Notes: a model not told the origin generated them from the sequence alone. Counted from the first letter of the whole stretch, positions 2,081 through 36,925 are shown. The stretch is DNA of 46,553 nucleotides, filler included, from Jimgerdemannia flammicorona (GCA_003990765.1; 2 parts of 2 records of this genome joined end to end with filler, not necessarily neighbours in it); one strand, 5' to 3'. Program-made: numbers and translations.

Positions 2081-2161
2081 ACCTTTTACCAGTAACATTC
2101 AGGTAACACAAAACTCAGACAACACTTTTTGCAACATTTTTGATAAAAGGAGACTATCAAT

Positions 2162-4077
2162 ATGGACAGCAATGAATGTACTAGTGAGTATACTGGGCAG
2201 AGGGACAGCAGTATCTTTGGCTGGCAGCATGTAGGAAGGAGGGGAGATAGTCTGGGGATGCCAGGGCCTTCTATGGCTGGATGTGGTGCTGGTGGTAGAG
2301 GGAGGGGTGGATTGTAGCAATGAGAAGAGGAGAGGATGACCTTTGCTGACAAGGTCAAGAAGGAGAGAATATCATCTGGTCTGGATAGTTGGTTGGGATT
2401 GGGGAAGGTGTCAACAGCTTTGGCTGGAGATCAGGGAGGGGCCCCCATGGGAGGGTCAGGCAGTAGAGGAGAGGAGAAAGTAGGGGCTGAAGATGTGACT
2501 GCTGATGAAGCTGTAACTGGGGATCTGGAAAAAAATCCAGATGTGATGGTCATTGGTAGATCAGGACAGGGGATGGGCATGAGGTCTGGGGATCTGGCTG
2601 ATAGTATGACTGGCATAGTGTCAGCACCATTATTCAAAAAGTCGCAGTCTGAATTAGCCATCACATTGTGCTTTTGAGGCTTAGTGGTGACTGTGAGGAT
2701 GATTCTGGGGTTGATAGTATAGGAGGTGAAGGGAGCAGCTTTAGTGAAGTTCTTGAAGGGAAGGAAGGGGTTGAGGTTGGGTTTGAGAAAGAGGTATCAT
2801 TGTTAGAGACCATGGAAAAAGGAGTAATAGTGGGCAGAGTAGTGGTTTCTATGGCCAGGTGCATATACTAGGACCCCCAAGTGGTACAGTTGACAGTATT
2901 GGACCTTTCTATAGTGTTAAGAGAGAGGGCCAGGGAGTTGGTTGTGGAGGTGGTTAAGGAGTATGGGGAGATCATGGACATTGGGTTTAGAGTCTGGGAG
3001 AGTACAGAACTTTGGATGAGTGACATCAATATCAGAGTGAGGCTGGCTGAAAGAGAGAATACAGAGAAGACAAGGGACTGGCCTGCTGTGCTTAAGTAGG
3101 GACCAGTTGAGTGCAAGGTCTCATGAGTGAAAGAGATGCCAGAGGAAGAGGAGGACTTACTAGAGGCTCTTGAGGATCTAGCAGGAGCTGTTGAGAGGAG
3201 GCAACTGGCTTGGAAGGAGTATGAGACCAAGACAGTGGTAGAGATTGTGGATGGCAAGAGGGTCAGGATGGACAAGGGGACCTAGGAGAAGATGCAGGGG
3301 AGGCAAATCCAGAAGGAGTTATTGGAGAAGCTGGGAGGGGGTGGAGTGAATAATAGGGTGAGTGAAGGTGGTACTGGACTGAGAGAGAGCACCTGGGCTG
3401 GGGAGTATAGGATAGATCAGAATGTGGCCCAAAGTGGATCAAATGAAGGGAAACTGGGTGGCATAGTAGAGGATGCCAAAATGGAAGAGGAAGCATACCC
3501 TCAGTATAGTATCCTGAGTAGGGCAGAGGGAGAGGAGGAACTTCTGAACATACTGAAGGAGGAGTAGGATGAGTTGGAGAGGAGGAGCACTTTGGTGGAC
3601 CCAGTGGTGGGGGTTGAGAGAGTTGCCCAGAGTGTTGCTGAGGTGGTGGATAAGGAGAAGTGACTGTGGAAGACTCTGGAGGGAGTGGCAGCTGAGGAGC
3701 TAGGGGGAGAGGACTTCTGGATTCTAAGTGATAGATATTGGGAGGAAATTCTTTATGGGGAGGAGGTGTTGAGGAAGATTAGGAATAAGATCCTGGCAGT
3801 ACTCTTGGAGTCAGAGGAATATCAAGTTGATGATCAGAGAGAGGAGGCCCTTTGAGAGATTGTGAATGACTGGATGGCATACTTGTGGGGTTTGAGAAAG
3901 GGATTAGAGAAGTGGAGAGTAGTATGTACAGATTATCAGGTGGAAATAGAGATTGTGGATGGGGTAGAGTATCAGGAAATCTTGGAAGCACTGGATGCTC
4001 AGGCTGTAGCAGAGGATGAGGTAGAGGCAGAGTGGCGTTTGGATCTGGCTAGTGATGAGATAAGTATAGAATTCTAG
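2162..4077 (+). pseudogene. LINE copy 1 ORF1 (Gly-rich N-terminus, acidic C-terminus), multiple stops
   Basis: Fragments 2336-2677, 2881-3099 and 3862-4077 are homologous to ORF1 of the other copies (APLxKKSxxExAxTLCF motif). Confidence 0.75.
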
Positions 4078-4108
4078 ACTGGGCTCTCAATATCAAACAT
4101 TTTTAAAT

Positions 4109-7100
4109 ATGAACAGTACAACTAGAATTATTTCTTTGAATATAAATGGATTGAGGGAAGTGGCATGACATAGGAATATCTTTGGCTGGCTGAGGGGACT
4201 GGATGTGGATCTTTTCTTATTACAGAATATATGATATGAGATTGATATAGACTTATAGGACTGGACTAGAGAATGGGGTGGGGCAGCTATATGGGCTGGG
4301 TGGGTGGACATTCTGGTTCAAAAGGGGATGGGGGACATTGGGAACATTGGACATTGGGGAAGTAGGTTGGTGTGGAGAGTATGGAAGAGGCCTGAGTGGA
4401 ACCCTTTGACAGTTGGGTTGTGTTATTGCCTGGCTGAGAGGGGGGAATGCATAGATTAGATCAGTGACCTGAGTGAGGCTGGTGTTATGGATGAGACAGA
4501 GATTGATTGCTTGGAGGGTGATTTCAATATAGTATATAATAATGAGTTGAATAGAACTAATAGCGGGAGAGGAATGAGAGGCAAAAGTGGTGGGTTGGAT
4601 AATTGGATGGAGATTGAGAGATTGAGCTCCTTGGTTGACTTGGGGTGACAGTTTTGAATAGATCACTGAATTTATACCCATTAGATGGCAGGGCTAGGCT
4701 CTAGGATCAACTGGGTGTTGATGGCAGAGTGCTGGGGAGCAGATGTCTGGGATGCACTAGAGGTAGTTTAGTACCTGTGGTCAGATTACTGGGGTCTAGT
4801 AGAGAGGGGGAGATTTGGGAGAAGTGGGGATGAGCCAGGACATTGGCAGCTGAATTCTTCTTTGCTAGAGGATGGTTTCTTATGGACAGACTGGGAGGTG
4901 GAAGTGATTGCAAAGATTGGGAGGTGGCAGTAGCAGGGATTGGAGATTGAGAATTGCTGGTGGCAGCTGAAATCGAGTGCTCAGAGGTACTGGAGAGAGG
5001 CAGGTAAAGGAAGGAGTGCTCAGTGGCAATGGGCAGAATTGCTAGAGGATTGGGGGGCAGCTGATTGGCAAATTCTGCAGATACAAAAGGAGGTTATTGA
5101 GTTAAAGGAAGTGCTATGAATGGAGGAAGAGGTTTAGTTGAAGGAGATGGTGGTAAGGTTGCAGTGGCAGAGATTGGAGGAGGGGAAGAGGCCTACTTGA
5201 TTTCTTTCATGATTGCTTCAGGCTCGGAGAATCAGTGAGAGGAGATTCTGGATGAGGATAGAGAGATGGTGGCAGAGACTCCTAAGATTCTGGGATTGCT
5301 GAGGACTTACTGGGGGAATTTATGAAGTGAGGAAGAAGGAGGTGAGGATGCCCTGAACATTAAACAGCAATTGGAGAATTGGTATTCAGACCTGGCTCTG
5401 GGCTTGGGGATACTAGGAGATTCAGTGCAGGGGGGGGGAAGTATGCAAGGTCTTAGCTTCAATGAGCAAGGGGATGGCTCTGGGAGAGGATGGGCTTCTC
5501 TGGGATTTTTGGAAGAAGATAGCAGGAGTGGAGGTAGTATTGGAGAAGATGATGGTAATGAGTAATGAGGTCCTTCAATCTGGATCTTAGATTGGAGGCC
5601 AGCATCTAGGGCTGGTCTCTTTGCTCTATAAGGATAAGGAGAGAAGAGAAGATTGGAAGAACTGGTAACCAATCATGCTCCTTGACATGGACCACAAGCT
5701 GGTGACAAAGATCTTGATGACTAGACTGTAGAGGATCACTCAACAAGTACTAGGAGTGGAGCAGAGGGGTTTTGTTGGTGGTCAGTTGATCCAAGATAGA
5801 ATGGCCTGGGTCTATGGGGTGATTGAAGGGGCTCAGGCAGCTGGGGTTGATGGCCAGTTAGTGTTTCTGAATCAGGAGAAGGTATATGACAGGGTGAGGA
5901 GGGTTTGGCTAGAGGGAGTGCTGAAATAGGTGGGAGTTCCCTCAGGGTTCAGGAGGTCATTAATTAGTCTATTGGAAAACAGCCAAGCAGTATTAATAGT
6001 GAATGGGTACAGAAGTGTGACTTTTCCACTTGGTCATGGGGTGCTACAAGGAGATCCTTTGTCACCCATCTTATATACCCTTTTCTTGGAGCCCCTATTG
6101 GACAGGATCAGGCATCAAATTGGGGGTTTGGACATTTTGGAAATTAATTGGAAAGTGGGGGCTTTTGCAGATGATATGGTGGTTAGACTAAGTTCATTAG
6201 AGGATGTGGAGGAATTGAGAAGGTCTGTAGAATGGTATGAGAGGGGCTCAGATGCTAAACTCAACTGGCACAAATGTAAGACTCTGGTGCTAGGTGGTGG
6301 AATAGTTAGTGGCGATATAATTGAAACAGTGGTACCAGCAGAAGAACCAGTCTGTTACTTAGAAATCTACTTTTTGGCATATGGGTCTCTTCTGCCCCAT
6401 GTATGGTGGGCACAGTGGCTCCTAGTATGGGGAAATGTACTCTTAAGGTAGGGTGGTAGGCATATATCCTTGGCAGGAAGAGTGATGGTGCTGAATATAT
6501 ATTGGCTGCCAAAGCTGTAGTATGTGGGGTATTATCTGGACTTCCTGGTATAGGTGGTCAGGAGACTTCTGAAGATGGCAAGATCATAGATCTGGGCTGG
6601 GTAGTGAAGTCAGATAGGTTGGAAGATTCTGACCCTACTTGTTGACAGAGGTGGGCTAGGCTTGGTGAACTTTACCAAATACCTTCATTGTCTAAGAGCA
6701 TGGTGGCTGAAGAGAGTGAGCAAGTTGAGGGGCTGAGAGTGGGTACCACTCATGCAGAGGGTGTGGGAAGTCCGGTATTCCCCTCATGGAGTGACAGGGG
6801 ATCTGCTTGCAATAGTGGCCCTGGATGAGAGCAGGAGGATATAATATAAAGGCTTTTGGTAGGGGGTGGTAGATAGTGCCAGGAGAATTGGACTTCAGTA
6901 GTAGGGTGATGAGGGGGAGGAGGACTGGGGACTGTAGATATAGAGATGGGACAGGCTATTGCTGGGTGGTACATTGGTAGAGGATTTCCAGCTTGGCAAT
7001 GGAATGAATGGTATGTAGGGCCTAGAGGGAGACTTGTGGCTTGAAGCATGGCAGAGGGTGGAGATTGGTGAGGAGTGGGACTGGAATGGTCTTTGGTCTT

Positions 7101-7540
7101 GGAGCAAGAAGGTGATATAGTGGCTTCCCCCCAAGTTCTGGATGGTATGGTGGAGGTTTCTAAGGCAGAATGTGATGCTGAACTATCAGTCTGGGCACTT
7201 GATAGTAGAGGGCATATTTGAGTGTGAGGAATATATAGATATTGGCCAGAAGGGGGAAGTGGTACAAATGCCTGAACATTAGCTTGGTAAGTATAAAGTC
7301 CTGGAGGAGTTTTGGCACTACATTGCGAACCAGTTAGGACTACAGGCCCTGGTGGGGGGGGAAGGGGGGAGATGGGGTTACCTCTACCAAAGACTAGTGG
7401 GGGGGGTTGGGGATGAATGGTTGATCTTGGGATAGGTTCTGGCAATTTAGGTTGCTGGCCAGGTATTGGTTATATATATTTGAGGATGGCCAGTAGGTTG
7501 AGGTTGGGGTTAGGGTGGCACAATGAAAATAGTTACTACA
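4109..7540 (+). pseudogene. LINE copy 1 ORF2: APE-like endonuclease, reverse transcriptase and C-terminal Cys/His region, disrupted
   Basis: Starts MNSTTRIISLNINGLR (APE motif I) and carries GDFN. RT motifs GVLQGDPLSPILY, AFADD and AKLNWHKC lie in ORF 5930-6451. Confidence 0.9.
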
Positions 7541-7876
7541 GAGGAGGAAGAAGGCCCAGCGGGAGCCATGGGAGCGAACCCAGAGCCAGTGTCAAAGCAA
7601 ACGGAAGACATGTGGAAGAGCATGTATAAGGGGGACAAACAAAGAATGTAACCGAAAATGCATCAGCCATTTATTGCCATGTAAAAACGCGGTCCTTATA
7701 TACAAAATACGATGTCCCAAAAGGGAGGACACGCCACAACTCGGGGCGAACTGAATTAGGAACCACATGACCGCCGGAGATAGGTGGAGATAAAGGGGGA
7801 GCCAATCCCAGTTGCAGGATAAAAATCACAAACAAACACAAACAAAACAAATCCAAATCGAGATTAAAAAACATCT
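7541..7876 (-). repeat. 336-nt terminal repeat (pLTR-like), outer copy of the left arm
   Basis: Direct repeat of 11194-11529 and reverse complement of 15264-15599. Confidence 0.9.
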
Positions 7877-8042
7877 GCAGACCCTGGAGGGGTGAGTGCG
7901 AGCGAGGGGTGAGGCCGAAACAGAGTGAGCTACAGCGAGCCCAAGTGAAGTAAGGGGCCAAAGGCAGCAGAGGGGAGCGGAGTGAGGCCAAGACCCCGGA
8001 GCAAGCACGAGACCCCGGAGGGGGCAAGGATGTTTTTTAATC
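7862..8042 (-). repeat. GC-rich 151-nt spacer bracketed by the 15-bp inverted repeat (left arm)
   Basis: GATTAAAAAACATC(T) at 7862-7876 and GGATGTTTTTTAATC at 8028-8042. Confidence 0.9.
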
Positions 8043-10090
8043 CTCTCCAGCAGAACCGGAGGTACCAGAAGGTGATGAAAACGCAAAACAAGAGCGATGG
8101 ATTGAAGAAGAAACAGAAGGAAGATGTGAACGAGCAATCAGAGGGCATCGGGAAAGAGATGAAAGTCCATGGCATGAAAGAGAAGAGTGCAGAATGGTAT
8201 CAGGGCATTGAGCAACCCAGTGAGCATGATCAAATGGTATGACAAGAATTGGGGGTGGGAAAGAAGAGGGGGTACAGAGAGGGTAAGGGGGGAGAGAGGG
8301 AAGGGAGGGGGGATAAAGAGGAGAGAGGAGGGAAGTGCGAACAACAGACCATTCAACAGAAGCAAGCAGATCACAAATGATAGAAATAGGGTAGGCACGA
8401 CGATGGACCACAAAGTTGCCAAGAACCCGAACAGCAGACACCCAATCAGAACGATGGGAGCAGCAAAGTACAAGACGACGAGCCTCACTACGAACACATT
8501 CAAGAAGAGTGCGACGAGGATGATTGGACAAGAAGTCAGGGAACTGTTGGGAACAGGGAAAACAGGAATAAACAACAGTTCGGAAGGGAGAAAGAGAGAT
8601 GGAAAGGTCCAAAAAGGGAATACTAGTTGTACTGCACACCCAAGTAATAGAATGATGGGGAGGGTAGATGCCCAGGAACACACTAGAGATATCAATGCCA
8701 GCAACAGCGAAGACAATAAAGTCATCAATGTATCGGCGAAAGAAGATATCCCCAGCCCGGAACGCAATAGAAAGAGGTGAAGTAATATCATGTAGCGCAT
8801 GCAATTTATGGGCCAGGCCAATGAGGTTGGCAAGGGTGGGGGCACAATTCGTACCCATGGCGATACCAGAAGTCTGGTGAAAAGAGCCAAGGGCTGACTC
8901 AAAATAATTAGAGCCACAGATGAGGAGCGTAAGCTCAACAATGGAAGCCAGTGAAACTGGGGAATCCAAAGGAAAAACCAAGGAACCCAAGAAGCAAAGG
9001 CAATCATCGATCTCATCAAAATGAATAGCAGTATAGAAGGAAGAGAAGTCACCAGAGGCCAAATGGGAAAAACAGTGAACAGGCACAATGGTGGAGCAGA
9101 GAAGGGCGAGCTCCTGAGTATCACAAAGAATAGTATACTCAGGCCCAAGACAGTGTTGCAAGAGAGCCATCCAGGAGAGAAAGAAGTGAGATAACCATTT
9201 CGAAATCTTGGTGGTAGGAGAACTATAAGCAGCCATGATAGGACACCAAGCCAAAGTAGGCTTGTGAACTTTAGGAAGAGCATAGAAAACTGGAAGAGAA
9301 ATATCCAGAGAGGACAAAGAGTCCTGGAAGAAGTTAAAAATGGGGTTCGCAAATGGGGAATCCGAAAGTGATCTAGCATGAGCCAGAGAAACCCGAAGAA
9401 GAGTGAGAACCTCATCCAATCCAAGAGCACTAGGCTCATAAGCCATGGCTCGAAGGAGGGCAGAAAGGCCATCAAGGTAGAGTGACTTAGGAATAAGTGC
9501 AAAACCCTGATTCTTATCAGTGACTGTGAGCAAATGCATAGGCAATTGCTTGACCGATTTAAGCACAGTACGCACAGCATGGTCCGAAACCAAGCAAGAG
9601 CGAGCTCATCTGGGAACGGACAGTGAGCAAGCCATGTCGAGGAATATGCAGTGTGAAGAGACATTGGAGGGGGGACCCAATCACTAGGAACAAAATAGCG
9701 AGAGGGCATCTCACCATGATCTTGAAAGAAAATGGCAAGGTCGAGAGCACGACGAAAACATGTTAGATGAGCCGGATCAGTGAAGGAGAATTGTGAGGGA
9801 GTTACAGGAAAAACAAAGCAAGGACCCAAGGATAAGGTAAAGACTTGAAGGGGAGAAAGGGAGCAGTTAGCCAAAGAAAAAGGAGGAGACAAAAGAGTTC
9901 TAAGAGAAGAATAAACCCGAAAGTTCAGGACAAGCAACTGGGAAAGGCGAAGGGGGGACAACATGAGGAACCACTCAGGGCACACCAGAAGCGACGACGG
10001 AATCCGAGAAGGGACGGGGACACTGGGGGAGAACCATGCCAGGGAGAAGTTTAAGAGTGGGAGGCCTTCTCCTTCCCTCTGACTTTTTTT
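8037..10090 (-). pseudogene. Penelope-like reverse transcriptase (ORF2) of the left arm, no GIY-YIG domain; 518-codon core open at 8037-9593
   Basis: PLE/TERT-superclade motifs: LSLGPxF, SDWVPP, TDKNQG, FYALPKVHK, (R)PIM, GDFSSFYTAI, QTSGIAMGTNCAPTLANL, RYIDD, PFLD, SNHP, RAYP. A 1-nt deletion near 9666 and a TGA at 9606-9608 separate the N-terminus from the core. Confidence 0.92.
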
Positions 10091-11264
10091 GAAGGTGGCG
10101 AACTCAACAAACGAGAGCACACCCTATCAGAGTGCCAGACCTTGCAGCCACAGGCTTTTGTGCAGCCCTTACATTCGGGGGCATGGGGAGAGGAGGCGGA
10201 GGAGGAACTGGCAGAGGAGGCTGAAGGCAAGTGAGCAGCCGAAGGGGCAGCAGCGTGAGACCACCATGAGGACAGACGGACTTAGCCGGGTGCCAGTAGG
10301 CATGGTGGAGGCAACCGGAGCAGACATCGCAAGGCCAGGCCCCGACAGGGTGAGAACCAAGTTGGCGGCCACGCTTGGGGGCAGGGGGAATGGAGGAGGA
10401 AGCCTTGGCAGGGGAGGGGGACTGGGAAGAAGCCAATTAAGCCTGATTGGGCTTGGCAGGGGTCTTGGTGGGGGTCTTGGAGGGGGCCTTGGCAGCAGCA
10501 TCGGCGAAGGAATGAACCTCAGCACGAGCAGCAGTACGAGCTTTGGCATGAATGGCCTCGGAGACCGAAACCTCAGGGGAGGTAGGCAGGGGAGCAGTGG
10601 TGGTGGCGCGAGCAGCAGCAGCAGCACGTGACATTTCCTGCTTGTGAAGGCAAGTGACAAAAGAGGTGCTGGTGAGAAGGAAGCAACGCACAGCGTCAAT
10701 GTCGGCGGCGACAGAAGGAATGTCCTGGATGGCGAAGCCACAGAAGGGGGAGGCAACCGAAAGATGAGAGGAGGCGAAGGCCATGAAAGCAGCACAGGCA
10801 CGTTGGAAGGAGGTGGAGGTGGCGGTGGCAGAAGCAGTGGCGGCATCAGCGGCAGCAAGTTTGGCGGCAGCAGTAGTGGCACGAACCTCTTCAGAGAAGG
10901 CTTGGCGGCGGGCCTCAGGGAGAACAGAGTAGCAGACGGCAGGCAGAGTGATGATGTCGACATCACAGCGGAGATGAGCCTCCTTGGCAGAGAGGGCAAG
11001 AACTGACCGGAACTGGGAGAGGAGTGGATGACCAGAGGGACGAAGGTCCAGGGGGAGGGAAAGGATGGCAGATGAGACATAGGTCTCGAATGAGACAGTG
11101 GCGGAGGTAAAGGCAGGGGGAGGGGGAGGAGGAAGTTCCTCATCCATGAGCTCGTCGACGAGGACGGAGGCCCTGAGGGCAGGCGGTACAGCAGAGGAGG
11201 AAGAAGGCCCAGCAGGAGCCATGGGAGCGAACCCAGAGCCAGTGTCAAAGTGAACAGAAGACAT
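10051..11264 (-). pseudogene. PLE ORF1 of the left arm: Ala-rich helical protein with C-terminal Cys/His motifs; one stop and a frameshift
   Basis: ORFs 10437-11264 and 10104-10436 are in the same frame, and are collinear with ORF1 of the right arm. Confidence 0.75.
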
Positions 11265-11529
11265 GTGGAAGAGCGTATATAAGGGGGATGAACAAAGAAT
11301 GTAACCAAAAATGCATCAGCCATTTATTGCCATGTAAAAACGCGGTCCTTATATACAAAATATGACGTCCCAAAAGGGAGGATGTGCCACAACTCAGGGC
11401 GAACCGAATTAGGAACCACATGACCACCGGAGATAGGTGGAGATAAAGGGGGAGCCAATCCCAGTTGCAGGATAAAAATCACAAACAAACACAAACAAAA
11501 CAAATCCAAATCAAGATTAAAAAACATCC
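11194..11529 (-). repeat. 336-nt terminal repeat, inner copy of the left arm (5' UTR plus first ORF1 codons)
   Basis: Matches 7541-7876. Confidence 0.9.
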
Positions 11530-11622
11530 TTGCCCCCTCCAGAGTCTCGCGCTCACTCCGGGGTCTCGGCCTCACCCCTCACTTGCACTCACCCCTCTGG
11601 GGTCTGCGGATGTTTTTTAATC
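11515..11622. repeat. Palindrome centre: 15-bp inverted repeat enclosing a 78-nt asymmetric GC-rich loop
   Basis: GATTAAAAAACATCC at 11515-11529 and GGATGTTTTTTAATC at 11608-11622. The loop equals spacer 15113-15263 minus the 73 nt between two GGCCTCAC repeats. Confidence 0.92.
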
Positions 11623-11943
11623 TCGATTTGGATTTGTTTTGTTTGTGTTTGTTTGTGATTTTTATCCTGCAACTGGGATTGGCTCCCCCTTTATCTCCGC
11701 CAATCTCCGGCGGTCATGTGGTTCCTAATTTAGTTTGCCCCGAGTTGTGGCGCATCCTCCCTTTTGAGACGTCATATTTTGTATATAAGGACCGCATTTT
11801 TACATGGCAATAAATGGCTGATGCATTTTCGGTTATGTTCTTTGTTTGTCCCCCTTATACATGCTCTTCCACATATCTTCCATTTGCTTTGACACTGGCT
11901 CTGGGTTCACTCCCATGGCTCCCACTGGGCCTTCTTCCTCCTC
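11608..11943 (+). repeat. 336-nt terminal repeat, inner copy of the right arm
   Basis: Direct repeat of 15264-15599. Confidence 0.9.
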
Positions 11944-13088
11944 TGCTGTACCACCTGCCCTCGGGGCCTCCGTCCTCATCAATGAGCTCATGGATGAGAA
12001 ACTTCCTCCTCCCCCTCCCCCTGCCTTTACCCCCGCCACTGTCTCATTCGAGACCTGTCTTATCTGCCATCCTTTTCCTCCCCCTGGACCTTCGTCCCTC
12101 TGGTCGTCCGCTCCTCTCCCAGTTCTGGTCGGTTCTTGCCCTCTCTGCCAAGGAGGCTCGTCTCCGCCATGATGTCAACATCGTCACTCCACCCACCGTC
12201 CGCTACTCTGTTCTCCCTGAGGCCTGCCGCCAAGCCCTCTCTGAAGAGGTTCGTGCCACCACTGCCGCTGCCAAACTTGCCGCCGCTGATGCCACCGCTG
12301 CTTCTGCCGCCGCTGCCTCCACCTCCTTCCAATGTGCCTGTGCCGCTTTCGTGGCCTTCGCCTCCTCTCATCTTTCGGATGCTGCCCCCTTCTGTAGCTT
12401 CGCCATCCAGGACATTTCTTCTGTCGCCGCCGACATTGATGCTGTGCGTCGCTTCCTTCTCGCCGGCACCTCTTTTGTCACTCGCCTTCACGAGCAGGAA
12501 ACGTCACGTGCTGCTGCTGCTGCTCACGCCACCGCCACTGCTCCCCTGCCTACCTCCCCTGAGGTTTCGGTCTCTGAGGCCATTCGTGCCGAAGCTCGTG
12601 CTGCTGCTCATGCTGAGGTTCGTTCCTTCGCCACTGCCGCTGCCAAGGCCCCCTCCCAGACCCCCGCCAAGACCCCCGCCAAGCCCAATCAGGCTTCATC
12701 AGCTTCTTCCCAGTCCCCCTCCCCTGCCAAGGCTTCCTCCTCCATTCCCCCTGCCCCCAAGCATGGCCGCCAACTTGGTTCTTGCCCTGTCGGGGCCTGG
12801 CCTTGCACTGTCTGCTCCAGTCGCCTCCACCATGCCTACTGGCACCCGGCTAAGTCCGTCTGTCCTCATGGTGGTGTTCCTTGTGCTGCTGCCCCTTCGG
12901 CTGCTTGCTCGCCTTCGGCCTCCTCTGCCGGTTCCTCCTCTGCCTCCTCTCCCTATGCCCCCAAATGTAAGGGCTGCATGAAAGCCTGTGGCTGCAAGGT
13001 CTGGCACTCTGATGGGGTGTGCTCTCATTCGTTGAGTTCGCCACCTTCAAAAAAAGTCAGAGGGAAGGGGAAGGCCTCCCACTCTTAA
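11873..13088 (+). pseudogene. PLE ORF1 of the right arm (~400 aa); start ATG mutated to ATA, 2-nt deletion near 12057
   Basis: Combining ORFs 11846-12172 and 11814-13088 rebuilds the left-arm ORF1. The C-terminus has CTVC..HHAYWH..C and CKGC..CGC..WH..C. Confidence 0.75.
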
Positions 13089-13097
13089 ACTTCCCCC
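13049..13097 (+). promoter_or_regulatory. Candidate -1 programmed ribosomal frameshift signal (A AAA AAA plus downstream pseudoknot) joining ORF1 to RT
   Basis: ORF1 reads tcA AAA AAA gtc and the RT-frame ORF is -1 at this point with no ATG of its own nearby. Downstream GGGGAAG can pair with CTTCCCC. The same signal occurs at 10042-10090(-). Confidence 0.65.
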
Positions 13098-15103
13098 TGG
13101 CATGGTTCTCCCCCGGTGTCCCCGTCCCTTCTCGGATTCTGTCATCACTTCTGGTGCACCCTGAGTGGTTCCTCATGTTGTCCCCCCTTCGCCTTTCCCA
13201 GTTGCTTGTCCCGAACTTTTGGGTTTATTCTTCTCTTGGAACTCTTTTGTCTCCTCCTTTTTCTTCGGCTGACTGCCCCCTTTCTCCCCTTCAAGTCTTT
13301 GCCTTATCCTTGGGTCCTCACTTTGTTTTTCCTGCGACTCCCTCACAATTCTCCTTCACTGATCTGGCTCGTCTAACACATTTTCATCATACTTTTGACC
13401 TTGCCATTTTCTTTCAAGATCATGGTGAGATGCCCTCTCACTATTTTGTTCCTAGTGATTGAGTCCCCCCTCCCAATGTCTCTTCACACTGTGTATTCCT
13501 CAACATGGCTTGCTCACTGTCCATTCCCAGATGAGCTCACTCTTGCTTGGTTTCGGACCATGCTGTGCGTACCATGCTTAAATTGGTCAAGCAATTGCCT
13601 ATGCATTTGCTCACAGTCACTGATAAGAATCAGGGTTTTGCACTTATTCCTAAGTCGCTCTACCTTGATGGCCTTTCTGCCCTCCTTCGAGCCACAGCTT
13701 ATGAGCCTAGTACTCTTGGATTGGATGAGGTTCTCACTCTTCTTTGGGTTTCTCTGGCTCATGCTAGATCGCTTTCAGATTCCCTGTTTGCAAACCCCAT
13801 TTTTAACTTCTTCCAGGACTCTTTGTCCTCCTCAGATATTTCTCTTCTGGTTTTCTATGCTCTTCCTAAAGTTCACAAGCCTACTTTGGCTTGGCGTCCT
13901 ATCATGGCTGCTTATAGTTCTCCTACCACTGAGATTTCGAAATGGTTATCCCACTTCTTTCTCTCCTGAATGGCTCTCTTGCAACACCGTCTTGGGCCTG
14001 AGTATACTATTCTTCGTGATACTCAGGAGCTCGCCCTTCTCTGCTCCACCATTGTGCCTGTTCACCATTTTTCCCATTTGGCCTCTGGTGACTTCTCTTC
14101 CTTCTATACTGCTATTCGTTTTGATGAGATCGATGATTGCCTTTGCTTCTTGGGTTCCTTGGTTTTTCCTTTAGATTCCCTGGTTTCACTGGCTTCTATT
14201 GTTGAGCTTATGCTCCTCGTCTGCGGCTCTAATTATTTTGAGTTGGCCCTTGGCTCCTTTCACCAGACTTCTGGTATCGCTATGGGTACGAATTGTGCCC
14301 CCACCCTTGCCAACCTCATTGGCCTGGCCTATGAATTGCATGTGCTACGTGATATTACTTCACCTCTTTCCGTTGTGTTCCTTGCTGGGGATATCTTCTT
14401 TCACCGATACATTGATGACTTTATTGTCTTCGCTGTTGCTGGCATTGATATCTCTAGTGTGTTCCTGAGCATCTACCCTCCCCATCATTCTATTACTTGG
14501 GTGTGCGGTACAACTAGTATTCCCTTTTTGGACCTTTCCATCTCTCTTTCTCCCTTCCGAACTGTTGTTTATTCCCGTTTTCCCCATTCCCAACAGTTCC
14601 CTGACTTCTTGTCCAATCATCCTCGTTGTACTCTTCTTGAATGTGTTCATAGTGAGGCTTGTCGTCTTGCACTATGCTGCTCCCATCATTCTGATTGGGT
14701 GTCTGCTGTTCAGGTTCTTGGCAACTTCGTGGTCCATCGTCATGCCTACCCTATTTCTATCATTTGTGATCTGCTTGCTTCTGTTGAATGGTCTGTTGTT
14801 CGCGCTTCCCTCCTCTCTCCTCTTTATCCCCCCTCCCTTCCCTCTCTCCCCCCTTACCCTCTCCATACCCCCTCTTCTTTCCCACCCCCAATTCTTGTCG
14901 TACCATTTGATCGTGCTCGCTGGGTTGCTCAACACCCTGATACCGTCCTGCGCTCTTCTCTTTCATGCCATGGACTTTCATCTCTTTCCCGACGCCCTCT
15001 GATTGCTCGTTCGCATCTTCCTTCTGTTTCTTCTTCAATCCATCACTCTCGTTTTGCATTTTCGTCACCTTCTGGTGCCTCTGGTTCTGCCGGAGAGGAT
15101 TAA
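13049..15103 (+). pseudogene. Penelope-like reverse transcriptase (ORF2) of the right arm, one frame with three TGA stops, no endonuclease
   Basis: ORFs 13019-13462, 13547-13969 and 13970-15103 share one frame. Motifs DKNQG, FYALPKVHK, WRPIM, GIAMG, YIDD, FLD and SNHP are present. The stop TAA lies inside the 15-bp inverted repeat. Confidence 0.92.
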
Positions 15104-15278
15104 AAAACATCCTTGCCCCCTCTGGGGTCTCGCGCTCACTCCGGGGTCTCGGCCTCACTCTGCTCCCCTCCACTGCCTTCAGCCCCTCACTTCGCTCGGG
15201 CTCGCTGTAGCTCGCTCCGTTTTGGCCTCACCCCTCACTCGCGCTCACCCCTCTGGGGTCTGCGGATGTTTTTTAATC
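15098..15278 (+). repeat. GC-rich 151-nt spacer bracketed by the 15-bp inverted repeat (right arm)
   Basis: GATTAAAAAACATCC at 15098-15112 and GGATGTTTTTTAATC at 15264-15278, with repeated CCCCTC(C/T)GGGGTCT, CGCGCTCAC and GGCCTCAC units between them. Confidence 0.9.
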
Positions 15279-15599
15279 TCGATTTGGATTTGTTTTGTTT
15301 GTGTTTGTTTGTGATTTTTATCCTGCAACTGAGATGGGCTCCCCCTTTATCTCCGTCTATCTCTGGCAGTCATGTGGTTCCTAATTCGGTTCGCCCCGAG
15401 TTGTGGCACATCCTCCCTTTTGGGACATCGTATTTTGTATATAAGGACTGCATTTTTACATGGCAATAAACAGCTGATGCACTTTCGGTTACATTCTTTG
15501 TTCATCCCCCTTATATACGCTCTTCCACATGTCTTCTGTTCGCTTTGACACTGGCTCTGGGTTCGCTCCTATGGCTCCCACTGGGCCTTCTTCCTCCTC
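15264..15599 (+). repeat. 336-nt terminal repeat, outer copy of the right arm
   Basis: Matches 11608-11943 and ends ...CTGGGCCTTCTTCCTCCTC. Confidence 0.9.
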
Positions 15600-15810
15600 G
15601 ACATTTTGAATAGCTGGTGGAGAGGGTGGGGACTCAGTGGAGAGGATTGACAGAGTTTAGTGAATTGTATTTGCCAGAAAAGTGGAGGGAGGGTTTGGGT
15701 GGCAGGTAGCTGGGTTATCCTCCAATAGGGAGGGATGGAGGATAGAGGAGAGGATCTGAAGGACATCAGTTGAGAGGTTGAGGGTAAAATTGTATTGGTA
15801 TTTATAGATT

Positions 15811-18800
15811 ACACAATTCACATTACACAAACTTCAAGCAACAGTTTTCAACATGACTAGGAGAAAAGGTATTATAAATATATCATCGAGTAAGAGTTCT
15901 GATAGGCATACTGGGTCAGGTGGACCTGGGGCTTTTGGCTGGCAGCATGTGGGGAGAGGGTATGGATTGGGGATGGGGGCTTTTGGAGAGTTGAAGGGTG
16001 GTGAAGGCTCTGGAGGAGGACCAGTGTCTGGTGGATCTGGAGGAAGGCCTAGTCCCTCCAGCTTTGTTGACAAGGTGAAGATGAGTGGATGGCCTGCTGG
16101 AACCAGGGCTGGCACTGCTGAGAGGAAGGGCAAGGCTAGCGTCAGGAGGGGGAGTGGCCCTCAGGGGGGAGATGAGAGCATAGGGGCTGGAGGGGCTGTG
16201 GCTGGGGGTGTGACTGTTGATGGGAGTGTGACGGGGGATCAGGAAAAAAAAAGAGATGTAACAGCTGATGGCCAGGTGGGGCAGGGGTTCCCAATGTGGA
16301 AGGGAGACCTGGTGGATAGTGTAACAGGGCTGGTGGTGGCCCCGTTGCTCAAGAAGTCGATCTCAGAGTTTGCAGCTACCTTGTGCTTTCAAGGCTTGGC
16401 AGTGATGGCGAGGATGGTCCTGGGGCTTATTTCGAAGCAGGTGGCTGGGGCAGCCTTGGTGAAGTTCCTGAAGAGTCTAGAGGGGGTTGAGGTAGGCTTT
16501 GAAGAGGCAGGCCCACTGGATGAGGCTCTGAAGAATGGAGTAGTAGTTGGGGAAGTGGTGGTCCCCATGGTGTGGTGCTTGAGGTGGGACCTCAGAGTGG
16601 TGCAGCTTCTGGTGAGGAGGGTGCTGATGGTGATGAAGGAGGAGACTAGGAGGAGGGTGGAGGAGGTGATGGTAGAGTATGGTAATACATATGGTGGACA
16701 TTGGCTTCCAGATGTGGGAGGGGACCACATTCAGGATAGGTGATATTGATGTCAGGATTCAGCTGGTGGGGAAGGAGGTCACTGGGAAGTCGAGTGACTG
16801 GCCCTTGGTGCTAATGTAGGTGTAAGGTGTTGAGGGTGAAAGAGAGTGAAGAGGAGGAGGAGGACTTGTTGGAGGCTCCGGAGGAGTTGAGTGGTGCAGT
16901 TGAGAGGAGGGCAAAGGCCTGAAGAGTGTTTGAGGAGTCAACACATCTGGAGATTGTCAATGGGAAGTATATTCACACTGACAAGAGGCAGTGGGAGCAG
17001 GCCCAGGGGTGCAGGAGGCAGAGGGAGCTATTGTAAGTATGAAAGGAGAGGCAAAGAAGAAGATAGATAGGGCTGCAGTGTCTGGGGGCATCGAAGCCAG
17101 TGTCTGGACTAGTAAAGGAGAAGGGGAGGTAGAGGCAAATGAGAAAGGGGCTGGGAAGGTACCAAGCAAGAACCTCTATGCTGATGGCACGTTTGAAGTC
17201 TGGGAGCAGGATTTGGATGCCACCCCCCCCCCTCTTATCAGAAGGGGCCTGGCTGTGAGAAGAGGGACAACAGAGGATGTGCTGATGCAGGGGGCCCAGT
17301 AAGTGCACTTTGGGGTCCCCAATGTGGCCAAAGGGGGCCAGGTGGTGGCAGTTGGCAAGGACAAGCTGATGGATATCTCTGAAGAGAAGTGGGATGAGGC
17401 TGCCAGTGTAGGAGCTGATACCACAATGTTGGATGTAGGGTGGCCAGGGACTCCGGGAGGGAAGGAGGTGGGGAATCTGCTGTGGATGAGTAAGATGATG
17501 GATAACCTCATGGCTGAGGAGTTGGGAGAGGTGGACCTGTATGTGATGCCTGAGGAGTATTGGGAGAGGTGGACCTATATGTGATGCCTGAGGAGCATTG
17601 GGCATGGATTCTGCATGGCAATGGAGTGGTGGAGGCACTGAAGGTGGAGATTCTAGTGATTTTCATAGAGGAGAAGAGATATGAGATTGATAAGGTGAGA
17701 GAGGCAGAGCTGGCAGTTGTTGCTGGTGAGCAGACTGCCTTGTCTGGAGTATTATGAGAACTTTGAGAAGAGAGAGGATGGGGTGATGGCTGAACTTCTG
17801 GGAGGGTTGGAGGCACAGGAAGCTGAGAAGAAAGAACTAGTGGCAGAATAAGAATTGGACTTGGCACAGGAGGAGTTGAATGTGGATTTGTAGAGGATGT
17901 GAGTGATATATAACATTATTTCTTATGAACAGTACAACCAACATTTTCTCTTTGAATGTGAATGGGTTAAGAGGTGCTAGGTAGTGTAAGAACATTTTTA
18001 CTTGGCTCAAGGGATTGGAGGCTGATCTCTTTTTACTGCAGGATGTACGGTGTGAGGATGAGGACAATTGGGTGGAGTGGACTAGGGAATGGGGTAGGGC
18101 TATTGCTTGGTTTGGCAAAGTGGTGATTCTGGTGAAGAAGGGTAGAGGTGACCTGGGGGAAATCAGGAACTGGGGTGAGCGATTGGTCTGGGGAGATTGG
18201 ATTTGGCCAGGGTAGGAATCAGTGAGGGTTGGCTCCTGTTACTGCCCTGCAGTTAGGGGGCGAGAGGATTATATGGATTGAGGAGCTGCTGGAGGAGGGT
18301 ATTTTCTTAGAGGAAGGAGTCGATATTCTGGGTGGTGATTTTAATATGGTTCAGGATCCACATCTGGATAGAACTGATGGAGAGAGAAATACAGGTAGGA
18401 GGAGTGGTGGTCTGGAGGCATGGGAGGAGGTAGAGAATCTTAGTTCCTTAGGGGATATGGGCAGAATGCAGTGGGGTGACACCAGGGTCTACACACATTG
18501 GGTGAATGGCTTAGATATGAGGATTGACTGGATACTGACAGCCAAATGTTGGGGTGCTGATGTTAGGAAGACTTTGGAGGTAGAGTAGTGCCCGTGGTCT
18601 GATCACTAGAGACTGTTGAGGCAGGGGCAGTTTGGGGGGAGTGGAGATGGACCCAGACATTAGTGCCTTAACTTCTCCCTGCTGGCTGAGAAGGGGTTGT
18701 GGGAATCATGAGTGGAGGATGTGCAGGTGAAGGTTCCTTTCTGGAGGCATGAGGGTTTGTCTGTTGGTGTCTGGTGGATGAGGTTGAAGGAGGCTATAAG

Positions 18801-21050
18801 GGTTTATTGAGGTGGAGCTGATAGAGAGACTGGGAGACAGAGGAGGAAGCACATATGGTGTGCTTCAAATAGGTTGATAAGATTGCAGATGGAATGGGCA
18901 GACTTGCTTTCTTCTGTTGAGAGGGATGATTGGAGGTTAGAGTGGGCAAAATTGGAGGTAGTAGAACTGCAACAGGTGTTGAGAGAGAAGGAAGAGATTC
19001 ATATGCAAGGGATGGCTGCCAGGTTATGGTGGCAGGAGCTAGAGGAGGGGGAGCAGCCTACTAGGTACTTGTCTAGACTCCTCAAAGCTAGGAGGGTGTG
19101 ACATAGATGGGATGGGGTCTTGGATGCTGAGGGAAATATGGTACATGGCTTGCAACAGATCTTGGGGGTTTTGAAGGAGAGTTGGCAGGGTCTGTAGAGT
19201 GAGAAAGAAGGGGGTGTGGAGGAAGAGGCAATTGGTGATGCCCTGGAAGAGTAAGAGCCACTGCAGGTGGAGAGACTGGGTAATCTGATCTTATTAGTCC
19301 AAGAGGAGGAGATCTGGGGGGTCCTTGCAGCCACTAAGCTTGGGATGGTACCTGGGGAGGATGGGTTACCTTGGGACTTCTGGAAGAAGATGGCAAAGGT
19401 CTCTGAAGTATTAGGAGAGATGGCTGCCCTCTGTGACCATGTTCTTCTGAAAGGTGAGTAGGTTGGAGAGCAGAACTTAGGGCTGGTGGCCTTATTGTAT
19501 AAAGGCAAGGGTAGGTGGGAGGACTGGAGGAACTGGAGACCAATCATGCTTCTGGATATGGACCGGAAGTTGGTGACTAAGGTAATTGTTGCAAGATTAC
19601 AGAAGGTTGCTCAACAGATGCTGGGTGAGGAGCAGCAGGGCTTTGTAGGAGGTAGACTTATCAGAGATGGGACTGCCTGGGTGTATGGCATCATAGAAGG
19701 GGCCTGGGCTTGCAGACTAGATGGTAGACTGGTCTTTCTGGACCAGGAGAAGGCCTATGACCATGTTCGGCAGGTATGGCTGGGCAAGGTGCTGAATAGA
19801 ATTGGTGTTCTACAATAGTTTAGGGCTTCTATGTTGAAGTTGTTGGAGGGTAGTAGGGCAGTACTAATGTGCAATGGTCACAGGGGTTTGGCATTTCCCT
19901 TGGAGAGAGGAGTTCCTCAAGGAGACCCACTGTCTCCTATTCTTTATATCCTGTCACTGGAACCTTTGATGGATAAGATCTATAGGAAGGTGGCCGGGCT
20001 CTCTGTGTATGGTGTAGTGTGGAAGGTGGGGGCCTTTGCAGATGATATGGTAGTTAGACTTGGATCAGTGGCAGATGTAGAGGCAATTAAGGAAATGGTG
20101 GAATAGTATGAGGCATACTCTGGGGCGAAACTCAACTGGCATAAGTGTGAGACAATGGTGTTGGGGAATGGGCTAGTGGAAGGGGATGTCATTGGAACAA
20201 TTGGCCTCACAGGAGAGGTAGTGAGGTATCTTGGTATCTTTCTCTCTATATATGGGTCAGTCTTACCACAGATATAGTGGGAGAGGAGGGTAGCTGTTTG
20301 AGGGGAGGCTCTTTGAGGTTGGGGGGGTCATCACATCTCCCTGGTGGGGCAGGTATCAATCTTGAATGTTTACTGGTTTCCCAAGCTGTAGTATGTGGCA
20401 TATTACTTAGACTTTCCAGCCTGGGTGGTGAAGAGGCTGATGAAACTGGCTAGAGATTGGATTTGAGCAGGAAGAAGGTCCCAGATCAGTTGGGATACCC
20501 TTGTGGAGCCAGGGATTAGGAGAGGCCTAGGTCTGGTAGATTTCCCTAAGTAGCTATACTGTCTGCGAGCCTGGTGGTTGAGAATGGCAGTGGAGCTGCA
20601 GGGAGGAGGTTGGGTACTGCTGATACAGAAGGTATGGGAGATGAGATTCTCTTCTCAAGGGTTCTCAGGAGATTTGCTCTCTCTGGTGGGTCTGAAGGGA
20701 AGCCGACAGATGAGATATAAGGGCTTCTGGTGTGGAGTAGTGGATGGAGCACACCAGATAGGCTGGTGTGGCAATGAGGGAGAGGTGGTGTGGGGCTCTG
20801 CTATATAGCATTGGGACTGACTACTTCAAGGGGGGTCTCTACTTGCTGTGTTTGACATTGGCAATGGAGTAGAGTATCAGCAGGAACTTGGCTGGGATCT
20901 TTGGCCAAGGAGTTGGCAGGTAGTGGGGATTGGTAAGGAGTGGGACTGAGCAGGAATCTAGTCCTGGAGTACTGAGGTGTGGAGGTGGCTTCCTCCCAAA
21001 TTCTGGGTAGTATGGTGGTGAATGCTACAGAGGAATGTTATGTTGAATTC
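15811..21050 (+). mobile_element. L1/Tx1-like LINE copy 2 (ORF1 ~15880-17892; ORF2 17925-21050), broken at its 3' end by copy 3
   Basis: Leader acaattcacattacacaaacttcaagc; MNSTTNIFSLNVNGLR; ILGGDFN; NWRPIMLLDMDRKL; FLDQEKAYD; GVPQGDPLSP; AFADD. Confidence 0.9.
17522..17597 (+). repeat. 38-bp tandem duplication in ORF1 of LINE copy 2
   Basis: ttgggagaggtggacct(g/a)tatgtgatgcctgaggag(t/c)a occurs twice. Confidence 0.85.
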
Positions 21051-22797: not shown

Positions 22798-23230
22798 CAC
22801 CTTTTTCCGGTACAATTCACGTTACACAAGACTTCAAGCAACAGTTTCCGACACTACTAGGAGAGAAGGTACTATCAACATGTCTTCAAGCAAGAGTTCC
22901 AACGGGCATACTGGGTCGGGGGGAGCTGGGGCTTTCGGCTGGCAGGAGGTAGGGAGGGGTTTTGGCCTGGGGATGGGGGCCTTTGGAGGGTCGAAAGGCA
23001 GCGAGGGCTCTGGAGGAGGACCAGTATTGGGTGGTAACAGGGGAAGGGCTGGCCCCTCCAGCTTTGCTGATAAGGTGAAGGGGAGTGGTTGGCCAGTTGG
23101 AGACAGGGCTGGAGACAGGGCTGGTGCTGCTGTGGGGAAGGGCAAGGCGAGCCTTGGGAGGGGGGGTGGTTCTCAGGTTGGAGGTATGAGCATAGGGTCT
23201 GGGGGAGCTGTGGCTGGGGGCGGGACTGCT
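22798..23230 (+). mobile_element. LINE copy 4: 5' leader plus ORF1 N-terminus (ATG ~22880), running into the assembly gap; least decayed copy
   Basis: Leader cacctttttccggtacaattcacgttacac; MSSSKSSNGHTGSGGAGAFGWQ; retains CpGs. Confidence 0.85.
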
Positions 23231-23330
23231 NNNNNNNNNNNNNNNNNNNNNNNNNNNNNNNNNNNNNNNNNNNNTTAATTAATTAANNNNNNNNNNNNNN
23301 NNNNNNNNNNNNNNNNNNNNNNNNNNNNNN
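23231..23330. other. Scaffold gap with artificial six-frame-stop linker
   Basis: 44 N, TTAATTAATTAA (23275-23286), 44 N. Contiguity across this point is unverified. Confidence 0.97.
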
Positions 23331-24385
23331 TTGAGGTAGCTCCAACGGGTGTCTCTATAGTGATGGGCGGTCCTTCAAATATCTCTATAAGACTCATTAG
23401 GTGACCTTGATGGTTGTCTCGGAGTGGGGTGGTGTGGAAACCTGGTTGAGTAGGTTCAGTTTGTTGGCTTCCTACGGCAATGCAGTTGCTGCCAATAGCA
23501 TTGGCTACTTCGGATTCTATCCCATTAGCATCTTCGGTTGATAGGCGGGAGAGGCTACCAGCTGTTACTCCTTGCAAGTGTATTATAGCCCAGGGAATAT
23601 TGCAGAAGATTTGATGGACGCGGAGGGCTCTCTTGATTAGCCGGCTGGTGGTTAACATTTTGGCAATGAGGTCTTCTTGGTCGCCTTCTTGAGTCTCATT
23701 GCGAAGGTGGTGTCCAATTTCGTAGTCATGCCAGAGGATTATTCATTCGGTAGTGTCTTTGAGCTGTTGGGTCATTATATACCGGTAGTTGATGAAGTGT
23801 CCAAGGTCCTCAGTGTAGAAGTTCAAGTGTTCGGAAGTATCAGGGCACCAGATGGCCTTCTTGATAGCTTCAAAGATCAGGGTCTTTGGGCCAGGCAAAG
23901 GGGTAGAGCGGCAGGAGGTCTGGTTGGTTTGGCGAATAGGAGGCATTGTGTGGTGGGTACTTGGTTCTTTGATGCTGATCCTTGAGGCGGAGTAGGGTTC
24001 CTTAAATAACGTGGTCTTCATTTTGGCTCGGGTCATCTTGTCTTCTTTTGGTGAAATCACTTGACGGATTAGGCTGGTCACCAGTTATCGCACCATAATG
24101 TCGTCTGATCTTGTGGTCACAGGGTACTCCGAATTTGGATAGGGTCAATTGTAGACATCACAATAGTTTCAGATCAGGTTAAAGATAGATAATATATAAT
24201 TCTAGATTAGATTAAAGACAAATAATATATAATTCTGGATTAGCTGTTTTTTAGATTAGATTTTAAGTTTATCAGATCAGATTTGTAAAATACTAACTAG
24301 AGGTAGAGTGGTATAGAAGCCAGCATTCTAGCTATATCTAACTAAAATCAGAAGCTGATATAATAATACAATTGAGGCCTATAGG

Positions 24386-24828: not shown

Positions 24829-24919
24829 CTTAGTAGCAGTGGTGTTATTACATATACCTTGCCTTATTAAGAAACCTCACACGAATTTGGAAACCAGTCA
24901 CAACTAGTCACATAAACCC

Positions 24920-25880: not shown

Positions 25881-25889
25881 CTCATTACC

Positions 25890-26310: not shown

Positions 26311-26346
26311 CAAGCAGTAAGTCTTAGTGAAAATCAAGTTCAAGCT

Positions 26347-36850: not shown

Positions 36851-36854
<4 letters not shown>

Positions 36855-36923
<69 letters not shown>
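36855..36923 (+). repeat. 69-nt uninterrupted poly(A) tract
   Basis: Directly visible. Confidence 0.95.

Positions 36924-36925
<2 letters not shown>

Follow-up and report, generated by a model that had tools for sequence, protein, structure and literature searches.

A head-to-head dimer of a putative endonuclease-less Penelope-like element joined at the element's own inverted repeat in Jimgerdemannia flammicorona

Introduction

How can a retroelement that carries no detectable endonuclease come to lie in a chromosome as two complete copies, head to head and sharing their 5' ends? This question is raised by positions 7541-15599 of a 46,553-nucleotide (nt) stretch of DNA from Jimgerdemannia flammicorona (GCA_003990765.1; hereafter the window, meaning the whole stretch that was analysed), where two reverse transcriptase (RT)-encoding units of a Penelope-like element (PLE) form a large palindrome. 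The answer that we tentatively favour, as possible and still short of probable, is that an endonuclease-less PLE with two open reading frames (ORFs) entered an old long interspersed nuclear element (LINE) in one complex retrotransposition event, at a DNA break within its 3' region, with both ends of the break priming.

PLE insertions often consist of partial tandems that form pseudo-long terminal repeats (pseudo-LTRs). At their 5' end there is frequently a further copy, inverted and 5'-truncated, and the origin of these tandem and inverted insertions is called undefined (PMC8557442, PMC11167929). In Pen2a_Av of Adineta vaga, the pseudo-LTR spans the first 12 ORF codons, and inverted and direct pseudo-LTRs overlap by 15 base pairs (bp); palindromes of 18 and 38 bp were described at pseudo-LTR 5' ends, and those at inverted junctions were considered best read as self-priming (Arkhipova et al. 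2013, PMC3846280). The endonuclease-deficient PLEs of protists and fungi were said in the same paper not to share an organisation of the Pen2a_Av type, and the cleavage properties of the GIY-YIG endonuclease have been proposed as the cause of the inverted architecture (PMC8557442). Purified Poseidon protein (the PAc study) cleaves and extends both DNA strands, reverse transcription starts inside the RNA near the ORF start, and the minimal RNA template requires the first 172 nt of the ORF (PMC11167929). Apart from Naiad and most Chlamys, every PLE group has been reported to carry a hammerhead ribozyme motif in the pseudo-LTR (PMC8557442).

Two complete units face each other

A repeat search showed that 7541-11529 and 11608-15599 are collinear inverted blocks with 92-94% complementarity, whose inner ends lie 78 nt apart (Table 1). 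When the two arms (3989 and 3992 nt) were aligned in sense orientation with MAFFT, 3708 positions matched and 279 did not (93.0% identity), and the arms differed further by three indels, of 4, 1 and 2 nt. The inverted similarity ends at 7541 and 15599, with none beyond, and the outer ends of both arms fall on the identical base of the terminal repeat; at the left end, two extra bases match the element (5 of the next 7 bases). The head-to-head arrangement, the arm lengths and the common end point, with a left end perhaps 2 nt longer, had all been reported in an earlier first-pass annotation of the window, and all are borne out by the repeat search and the alignment. A BLAST search of unit B against the window returned only two copies of the unit, A and B, and our evidence base is this one locus with its two decayed copies.

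The differences between the arms are mostly the marks of CpG decay. Transitions account for 268 of the 279 mismatches, of which 148 lie in a CpG still kept by one arm, while 49 plus 49 are paired CA/TG states, each pair apparently the remains of a single ancestral CpG, lost through one strand in one arm and through the other strand in the other. Sites of decayed CpG thus hold 246 of the 279 differences, and the non-CpG remainder comes to 33 of 3987 aligned sites, or about 0.8%. Polarised transitions are balanced between the arms (130 versus 138), and the two arms have similar CpG observed/expected (o/e) ratios of 0.52 and 0.56, as befits arms of the same age.

This pattern bears on the possibility of an assembly error, a frequent problem with the tandem and inverted structures of PLEs (PMC8557442). 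Reads counted twice, however, would not leave arms that differ at 7% of sites and by three indels, in both directions; the balanced divergence together with the indels makes an assembly fold-back artefact unlikely.

Table 1 Positions of the palindrome, its parts and its flanks, counted from the first letter of the window
Feature	Position	Strand	Description
Left flank	7363..7540	+	3' region of degenerate LINE copy 1; 7363-7514 collinear with 33740-33885 of LINE copy 3
Unit A	7541..11529	-	3989 nt; 3' terminal repeat, hairpin module, ORF2, ORF1, 5' terminal repeat
Complete hairpin module, unit A	7862..8042	-	IR2 copy with one CpG-type change
Central junction	11515..11622	+	IR1 11515-11529, spacer remnant 11530-11607 (78 nt), IR2 11608-11622
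Unit B	11608..15599	+	3992 nt as arm; 4085 nt if the central module from 11515 is included
5' terminal repeat of unit B	11608..11943	+	336 nt, pseudo-LTR part
Other terminal-repeat copies	15264-15599; 11194-11529; 7541-7876	+; -; -	
TATA box	11782-11788	+	In the 5' terminal repeat of unit B; ORF1 ATG (11915) 127 nt downstream
ORF1 of unit B	11915..13088	+	391 codons by alignment columns; alanine-rich, Cys/His clusters
Slippery heptamer	13049..13055	+	AAAAAAA (seven A), in phase for a -1 frameshift from ORF1 into ORF2
ORF2 of unit B	13049..15103	+	685 codons, slip site to TAA in IR1; -1 frame, overlaps the end of ORF1
Complete hairpin module, unit B	15098..15278	+	15 nt, 100% complementary; long imperfect hairpin
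Right flank	15600..15812	+	Same LINE 3' region continued; 15618-15810 collinear with 33925-34130 of LINE copy 3

A hairpin module of the element forms the junction

Each unit carries direct terminal repeats (pseudo-LTRs) at both ends, 336 nt long and with a period of 3656 nt; including the hairpin module described below, the repeated part comes to about 500 nt. The 3' end of the insertion lies 29 nt past the ORF1 ATG, that is, within ORF1. Just past this start codon, a small GC stem-loop followed by a CT-rich tail (11917-11943 on the plus strand, with matching ends of the other three repeats) makes up the extreme 3' end of the element and is a candidate start site for reverse transcription. 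A bacterial promoter and terminator scan of the centre flagged only the stem-loop at 11917-11931; such a scan has no meaning for a eukaryotic element and was set aside.

Upstream of the 3' repeat and running into it, each unit has a hairpin module of 181 nt in total, consisting of a first inverted repeat (IR1), a 151-nt spacer and a second inverted repeat (IR2). The module begins at the ORF2 stop codon, which sits inside IR1. In unit B, IR1 (15098-15112) and IR2 (15264-15278) match as inverted copies over all 15 nt; of the five inverted pairs listed for the unit, no other is both perfect and longer than 11 nt. Stable folds were predicted for the RNA of a 211-nt segment with the module (-73.3 kcal/mol, z -3.97) and for the antisense DNA of both the full 181-nt module (-34.6 kcal/mol, z -4.88) and the central 108 nt (-21.6 kcal/mol, z -4.43), and the 15-nt ends are paired in all three.

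At the centre of the palindrome, the 15 bp at 11515-11529 double as IR1 of unit B and as the reverse complement of IR2 of unit A, so that the two 5' ends overlap by 15 nt. Since the same pair is perfect inside unit B by itself, the earlier claim that the palindrome turns on the element's own 15-bp inverted repeat stands. So does the reported 78-nt length of the central loop, but its sequence is not arbitrary: alignment of the four pseudo-LTR regions identified it as the 151-nt spacer in the orientation of unit B, from which 73 nt were lost between 10-nt direct repeats. As judged by eye on the predicted fold, the missing 73 nt would correspond roughly to the apex of the hairpin. Because the 15-nt overlap lies on a repeat that the element itself encodes, it indicates that annealing made the junction; ends joined at random would not be expected to overlap in this way.

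The annealing could have taken place within a single cDNA, as the first-pass annotation had proposed. A cDNA begun at 15599 would end in the reverse complement of IR1, fold back onto its own copy of IR2 and copy itself to its first base, after which the resulting 8-kb self-complementary strand would be joined across the break and made double-stranded by displacement synthesis. This is the simplest account of equal and complete arms, which agree in length within 3 nt and at their ends within 2 nt. Additionally, the antisense 3' end is paired in the predicted hairpin, and the loop has the orientation predicted for a cDNA begun at 15599. Self-priming was inferred earlier from palindromes at Penelope inverted junctions (PMC3846280), and self-annealing of cDNA ends into hairpins has been proposed for L1 (PMC11702581). 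Self-priming is thus not a new idea for PLEs, having been in print since 2013 for endonuclease-bearing Penelope elements (PMC3846280). One detail of the outer ends speaks against such a copy: the two bases by which unit A may extend past the end of unit B, if derived from the element, would be impossible in a copy of B, although a 2-nt match has a chance of 1/16 and may be fortuitous. The flanks, described below, add a further objection.

The element is Penelope-like and apparently lacks an endonuclease

ORF2 carries the N-terminal motifs of PLEs, a TDKN motif, RT motifs including YIDD, and a thumb, and it aligns with its relatives through TDKN, PKVHKP, GIAMGTNCAP, RYIDD and FLDL. A profile of the RT searched with HMMER against 1.84 billion representatives gave 2872 matches at E<=1e-3 and only 4 at E<=1e-30, which indicates that the ORF2 family is isolated. 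The named RTs among the matches are amphibian and shark RTs of PLE type, and the Atlas neighbours carry HTH_animal/RVT_1. The element's own matches to Pfam RVT_1 scored 15.7 and 19.4 bits and so fell short of the cut-off (29.6 bits), and a comparison with solved structures gave no match at E<=0.01. In a quick maximum-likelihood tree of 70 unnamed rows of at least 380 residues, which holds no Athena, Coprina or other named references, the window RT forms a five-row clade with P0001, P0046, P0047 and P0048 (SH-like approximate likelihood-ratio test, SH-aLRT, 99). This clade is distinct from two others, the GIY-YIG clade and one of 30 rows made up of long proteins in which no endonuclease was detected.

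A C-terminal GIY-YIG domain was found in four of the relatives scanned with Pfam, namely P0094, P0098 and P0107 (3 of 69) and P0015. No endonuclease match to Pfam was obtained in the five ORFs scanned here. A profile built from the endonuclease parts of four relatives scored 34 of 222 other proteins at E<=1e-3, and its best value among 177 six-frame pieces of 7401-15750 was E=0.35. ORF2 ends at the point where endonuclease-bearing relatives run on into a linker, and P0046 ends at the same point. No hammerhead was present among the three weak Rfam matches at E<=5 over 7000-16200, and the four matches to the hammerhead core pattern in the window include none within 7541-15599.

The RT motifs and relatives, together with the empty Pfam and profile searches for an endonuclease, bear out the identity proposed at first pass, and the element is best described from its sequence as a Penelope-like element with two ORFs and apparently no endonuclease.

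Coding content, decay and the history of the two arms

ORF1, which has no Pfam match, ends at a TAA common to both arms. The seven-A heptamer lies 31 nt upstream of this stop and is followed by a G-rich/C-rich stretch with pairing potential; it is kept in unit A at 10084-10090 on the minus strand, likewise in phase. The site is a candidate for a -1 programmed ribosomal frameshift that would join ORF1 and ORF2.

Both units are dead copies. Unit A has a 4-nt deletion near 10260, a 1-nt deletion near 9668 and a private ORF1 stop at 10439, and unit B has a 2-nt deletion at 12055 and private ORF2 TGA codons at 13460 and 13967. The two share one further in-frame TGA in ORF2, at 13532-13534 on the plus strand and 9606-9608 on the minus strand, between the N-terminal motifs and TDKN. 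This shared TGA may have been inherited from a defective source copy, or CpG decay may have struck both arms in parallel; a recoded stop is less likely. As the remaining ORF2 CGA codons are intact in both arms (4 of 4), two parallel hits at the TGA site are somewhat less likely, and the shared TGA mildly favours one defective source lineage. Related sequence was also found in a single soil-metagenome run of short contigs, which covers 0.06 of the sampled words and in which 284 short records of related copies were placed. Soil contigs have extra bases at all three indel sites, in agreement with deletions at the 7541-15599 locus. No junction-spanning piece and no joints were found among the short contigs listed, an exact 25-nt terminal-repeat pattern had 0 matches in metagenome contigs, and protein-guided scans of metagenome, genome and viral contigs gave 86, 25 and 24 pattern matches, respectively, among which no relative could be confirmed.

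The equal decay of the arms and their shared TGA point to one event or one source lineage, and so bear on the idea of two separate insertions. On that account, unit B would have inserted first with its 5' end at IR1, and a second copy would later have been attached in the opposite orientation at a break there, with the 15-nt complementarity as its guide. PLE proteins are capable of homing to the pseudo-LTR of their own element (PMC11167929), and nested or secondary PLE insertions in opposite orientation have been described (PMC3846280). The first-pass annotation had taken the shared end point as an argument against two insertions, but this carries little weight, because the outer end is the defined 3' terminus of the family (compare Pen2a_Av, PMC3846280) and would be expected of any two insertions. 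What does speak against them is the equal CpG decay with only about 0.8% non-CpG divergence between the arms, the in-frame TGA common to both, and the need for the second insertion to abut the first without any flank between.

Whether the copies belong to different subfamilies, the test suggested in the annotation, was assessed at 22 ancestral CpG sites of the four terminal-repeat copies; the three possible partitions received 9, 6 and 5 shared derived states. The most frequent is a cross pattern that groups the 3' repeat of A with the 5' repeat of B and the 5' repeat of A with the 3' repeat of B (9 shared states). Such a pattern would fit two source variants followed by an inversion between the arms, whereas the copy pattern expected of a single cDNA that copied itself (5' with 5' and 3' with 3') received 5 shared states against 9 and 6. 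Neither difference is significant; the permutation p for the best of three is 0.44, and the test favours no model. An origin from two sources plus inversion, suggested by a cluster of cross-pattern sites at repeat positions 240-278, was dropped on the same grounds, with a site-shuffling p of 0.14 for the partition (clustering ignored) and 0.44 for the best of three. Overall, we consider two separate insertions distinctly improbable.

The dimer occupies one site in an old LINE

Sequence on both sides of the palindrome matches the 3' region of another LINE in the window (Table 1). The flank alignments score 54 on the left and 77 on the right, against maxima of 45 and 57 in 200 shuffles, and the unaligned gap between the flank blocks is 44 nt here and 39 nt in LINE copy 3. 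Given this collinearity, the 8,059-bp block is one discrete interstitial insertion, which entered the LINE 3' region without a large deletion, duplication or inverted copy of the flanks. It is also the youngest part of the window, with a CpG o/e of 0.50 as compared with 0.00-0.15 in the older elements. A search for repeats of the TTAGGG type found no telomere array. An 11/12 match to two TTAGGG units at 7504-7515 on the plus strand is at chance level, as 41 of 100 shuffles reach it; it stands in a G-rich run, 26 nt from the left junction and on the strand that would serve as primer.

An origin at the DNA level would have the inverted duplication arise by break-induced fold-back at a repeat or by template switching during replication, and it is a known property of short inverted repeats that they seed palindromic duplications. 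Both arms, however, end exactly at the 3' terminus of the element, and the flanks are collinear with one LINE copy, whereas a DNA fold-back would overrun the boundary. DNA-level fold-back was accordingly rejected as the main account, and together with the assembly error considered above, we hold an origin of this kind to be very improbable.

The flanks likewise constrain the self-copying of one cDNA. Fold-back priming at a DNA end would leave a single double-stranded copy closed at its tip, and replication of that hairpin would extend the palindrome into the flank, in contrast to the collinear, non-inverted LINE flanks seen here. Because of this mismatch, the 4-kb hairpin must be unwound by displacement synthesis from the other end of the break. 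Thus the stable antisense hairpin with its paired 3' end, the loop orientation and the 15-nt overlap stand on the side of the fold-back proposed at first pass; the additional unfolding step stands against it, and priming from two ends would yield the same product. We regard the self-copying of one cDNA as possible though rather unlikely.

A possible route through priming at both ends of a break

With no endonuclease, the element would need pre-existing 3'-OH ends, as has been stated for endonuclease-deficient PLEs (PMC8557442). In the reading that we tentatively favour, both broken DNA ends would prime reverse transcription of the element RNA at the fixed start of the family, 29 nt into ORF1. 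Each cDNA would be longer than one unit, which would create the pseudo-LTR, and would then reach the 181-nt hairpin module at the ORF2 stop. Owing to the imperfectly palindromic module, the ends of the two antisense cDNAs could anneal over the 15-nt repeat and prime second-strand synthesis on each other, whereby the break would be closed as a head-to-head dimer with one shared central module. Both copies would later have decayed, mainly by CpG deamination. Directly visible in the sequence are the anatomy of the dimer with its 15-nt overlap, outer ends that stop at one and the same base, flanks collinear with a LINE, the lack of an endonuclease and arms that have decayed to the same degree. We infer that there was a break, that both its ends served as primers on two RNA templates, and that the cDNAs then primed each other. 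Priming from two ends would give the observed product directly, and would fit the attachment of endonuclease-less PLEs to free ends with the 3' end proximal.

Several points weigh against this reading. It draws on a single locus, and both the element RNA and its start site are read from DNA alone. It asks much of two independent cDNAs that each should exceed one unit and that both should end in the same module, given how often PLE insertions are 5'-truncated (PMC8557442), while the folding back of one cDNA yields equal, complete arms for free. Microhomology between primer and RNA is absent at the right junction and amounts to 2 nt (5 of 7) at the left. With LINE copies that are only about 65% alike, neither a target-site duplication nor an empty site could be made out; the only sequence that recurs at both junctions is a 3-nt ACA. 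Nor does the partition of the terminal repeats lend it support.

If the route through two priming ends is correct, it may extend beyond this locus. Endonuclease-less PLEs of this clade might enter internal chromosomal sites by capping both ends of a double-strand break, as at telomeres, with the conserved hairpin module either pairing two cDNA ends or folding one, so as to prime the second strand and reseal the chromosome. We put this forward as a doubtful generalisation. Were it true, head-to-head dimers would be a regular mark of endonuclease-free integration, and the long-unexplained inverted architecture of PLEs in general would become easier to understand.

Comparison with known retroelements

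The closest parallels are found in the endonuclease-bearing Penelope elements Pen2a_Av and Pen3a of Adineta vaga (PMC3846280, PMC8557442). There as here, direct pseudo-LTRs reach into the first codons (12 there and about 10 here), a TATA box lies in the pseudo-LTR, and the RT has PLE motifs. An inverted copy beside the 5' pseudo-LTR overlaps it at a palindrome, by 15 bp in the published case and in ours. The element described here differs in having no GIY-YIG domain in any frame and no hammerhead, in having two ORFs linked by a candidate -1 frameshift site as opposed to one ORF, in carrying a complete inverted unit with its own pseudo-LTR where the published elements have a short 5'-truncated inverted piece, and in its 181-nt interrupted hairpin as compared with palindromes of 18 to 38 bp.

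Coprina (Coprina-1_Alen, PMC13159263) and Athena (PMC8557442) resemble the element in other respects. They have no endonuclease and a DKN-type motif before the RT, they are likewise thought to depend on pre-existing DNA ends, and Athena and Coprina-1_Alen have two ORFs with ORF1 set off by a frameshift. The direct terminal repeats of Coprina-1_Alen are likewise some hundreds of bp long, with a maximum of 422 bp (PMC13159263). In contrast, Coprina and Athena are described at chromosome ends, with reverse-complement telomere repeats and hammerheads near the 3' end, whereas our element has interstitial LINE flanks and neither feature was found.

Twin priming and endonuclease-independent insertion of L1 share with the present case a second target end that primes, microhomology that joins inverted segments, and a discussed self-annealing of cDNA (PMC11702581). 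The inverted segments of L1 twin priming are, according to that account, complementary parts of one RNA and together amount to at most one unit. Each arm here exceeds one full unit, so that either two templates or a copy of the first cDNA would be needed, and classical L1-type twin priming was rejected as a full account. The pFOXC retroplasmids of Fusarium are extrachromosomal, mitochondrial, hairpin-ended linear DNAs. They are similar only in the idea of a reverse-transcribing element with a terminal hairpin; ours is a chromosomal insertion in a LINE with an RT of PLE type. The first-pass annotation had read the locus as a possible fossil of a hairpin replication intermediate; a single chromosomal locus flanked by LINE sequence gives no support to such an intermediate, to an extrachromosomal hairpin replicon or to a connection with retroplasmids.

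What is known, then, is the overlap of inverted pseudo-LTRs at a palindrome and its reading as self-priming, in endonuclease-bearing Penelope elements since 2013 (PMC3846280). What is new is the host element, which is endonuclease-less and non-telomeric, has two ORFs with a frameshift site and no hammerhead, and has a full-length inverted partner. A literature search, with most subscription papers outside its scope, turned up no earlier description of such a full-length head-to-head dimer in a PLE without an endonuclease. A Penelope-type architecture in an endonuclease-less, non-telomeric element counters the statement on endonuclease-deficient PLEs in PMC3846280, and an inverted architecture in an element without an endonuclease implies independence from the GIY-YIG enzyme. 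The locus is an unusually clean fossil: both units are complete, they overlap exactly at the hairpin, their outer ends coincide, and the flanks can be compared with a copy of the target that is not interrupted. It also gives the hairpin module a concrete, testable role. As one decayed locus, it is a useful example of a debated copying step in a layout already known for PLEs; it sharpens a hypothesis in print and does not establish a mechanism, let alone a new one.

Other features of the window

The window is crowded with decayed transposable elements. Three degenerate LINE copies lie on the plus strand, with remnants of an apurinic endonuclease and an RT. They occupy 2097-7540, 15813-21050, 22812-23228 and 28328-34130, partly head to tail and about 65% alike, and the copy that follows the right flank begins at about 15813. 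These copies have a very strong G-over-C skew of 0.4-0.5 and a CpG o/e of 0.01-0.15. Two runs of 44 N each (23231-23274 and 23287-23330), with 12 bases between them, fall in this LINE-rich part.

The AT-rich stretches at 1-2000, 24001-28000, 34001-39000 and 42001-46553 have a GC content of 0.17-0.35, a CpG o/e of 0.0-0.1 and lowered TpG/CpA. They contain Gypsy-like pieces, recognised as Gypsy-type remnants of a protease, an RT and an integrase zinc finger, and their composition suggests very old repeats decayed by more than CpG deamination. An open frame at 39091-39864 on the minus strand, with matches to a retroviral-type protease and a dUTPase, is part of a younger LTR-retroelement remnant (CpG o/e 0.30); the sole relative found is a metagenome protein that is 53% identical.

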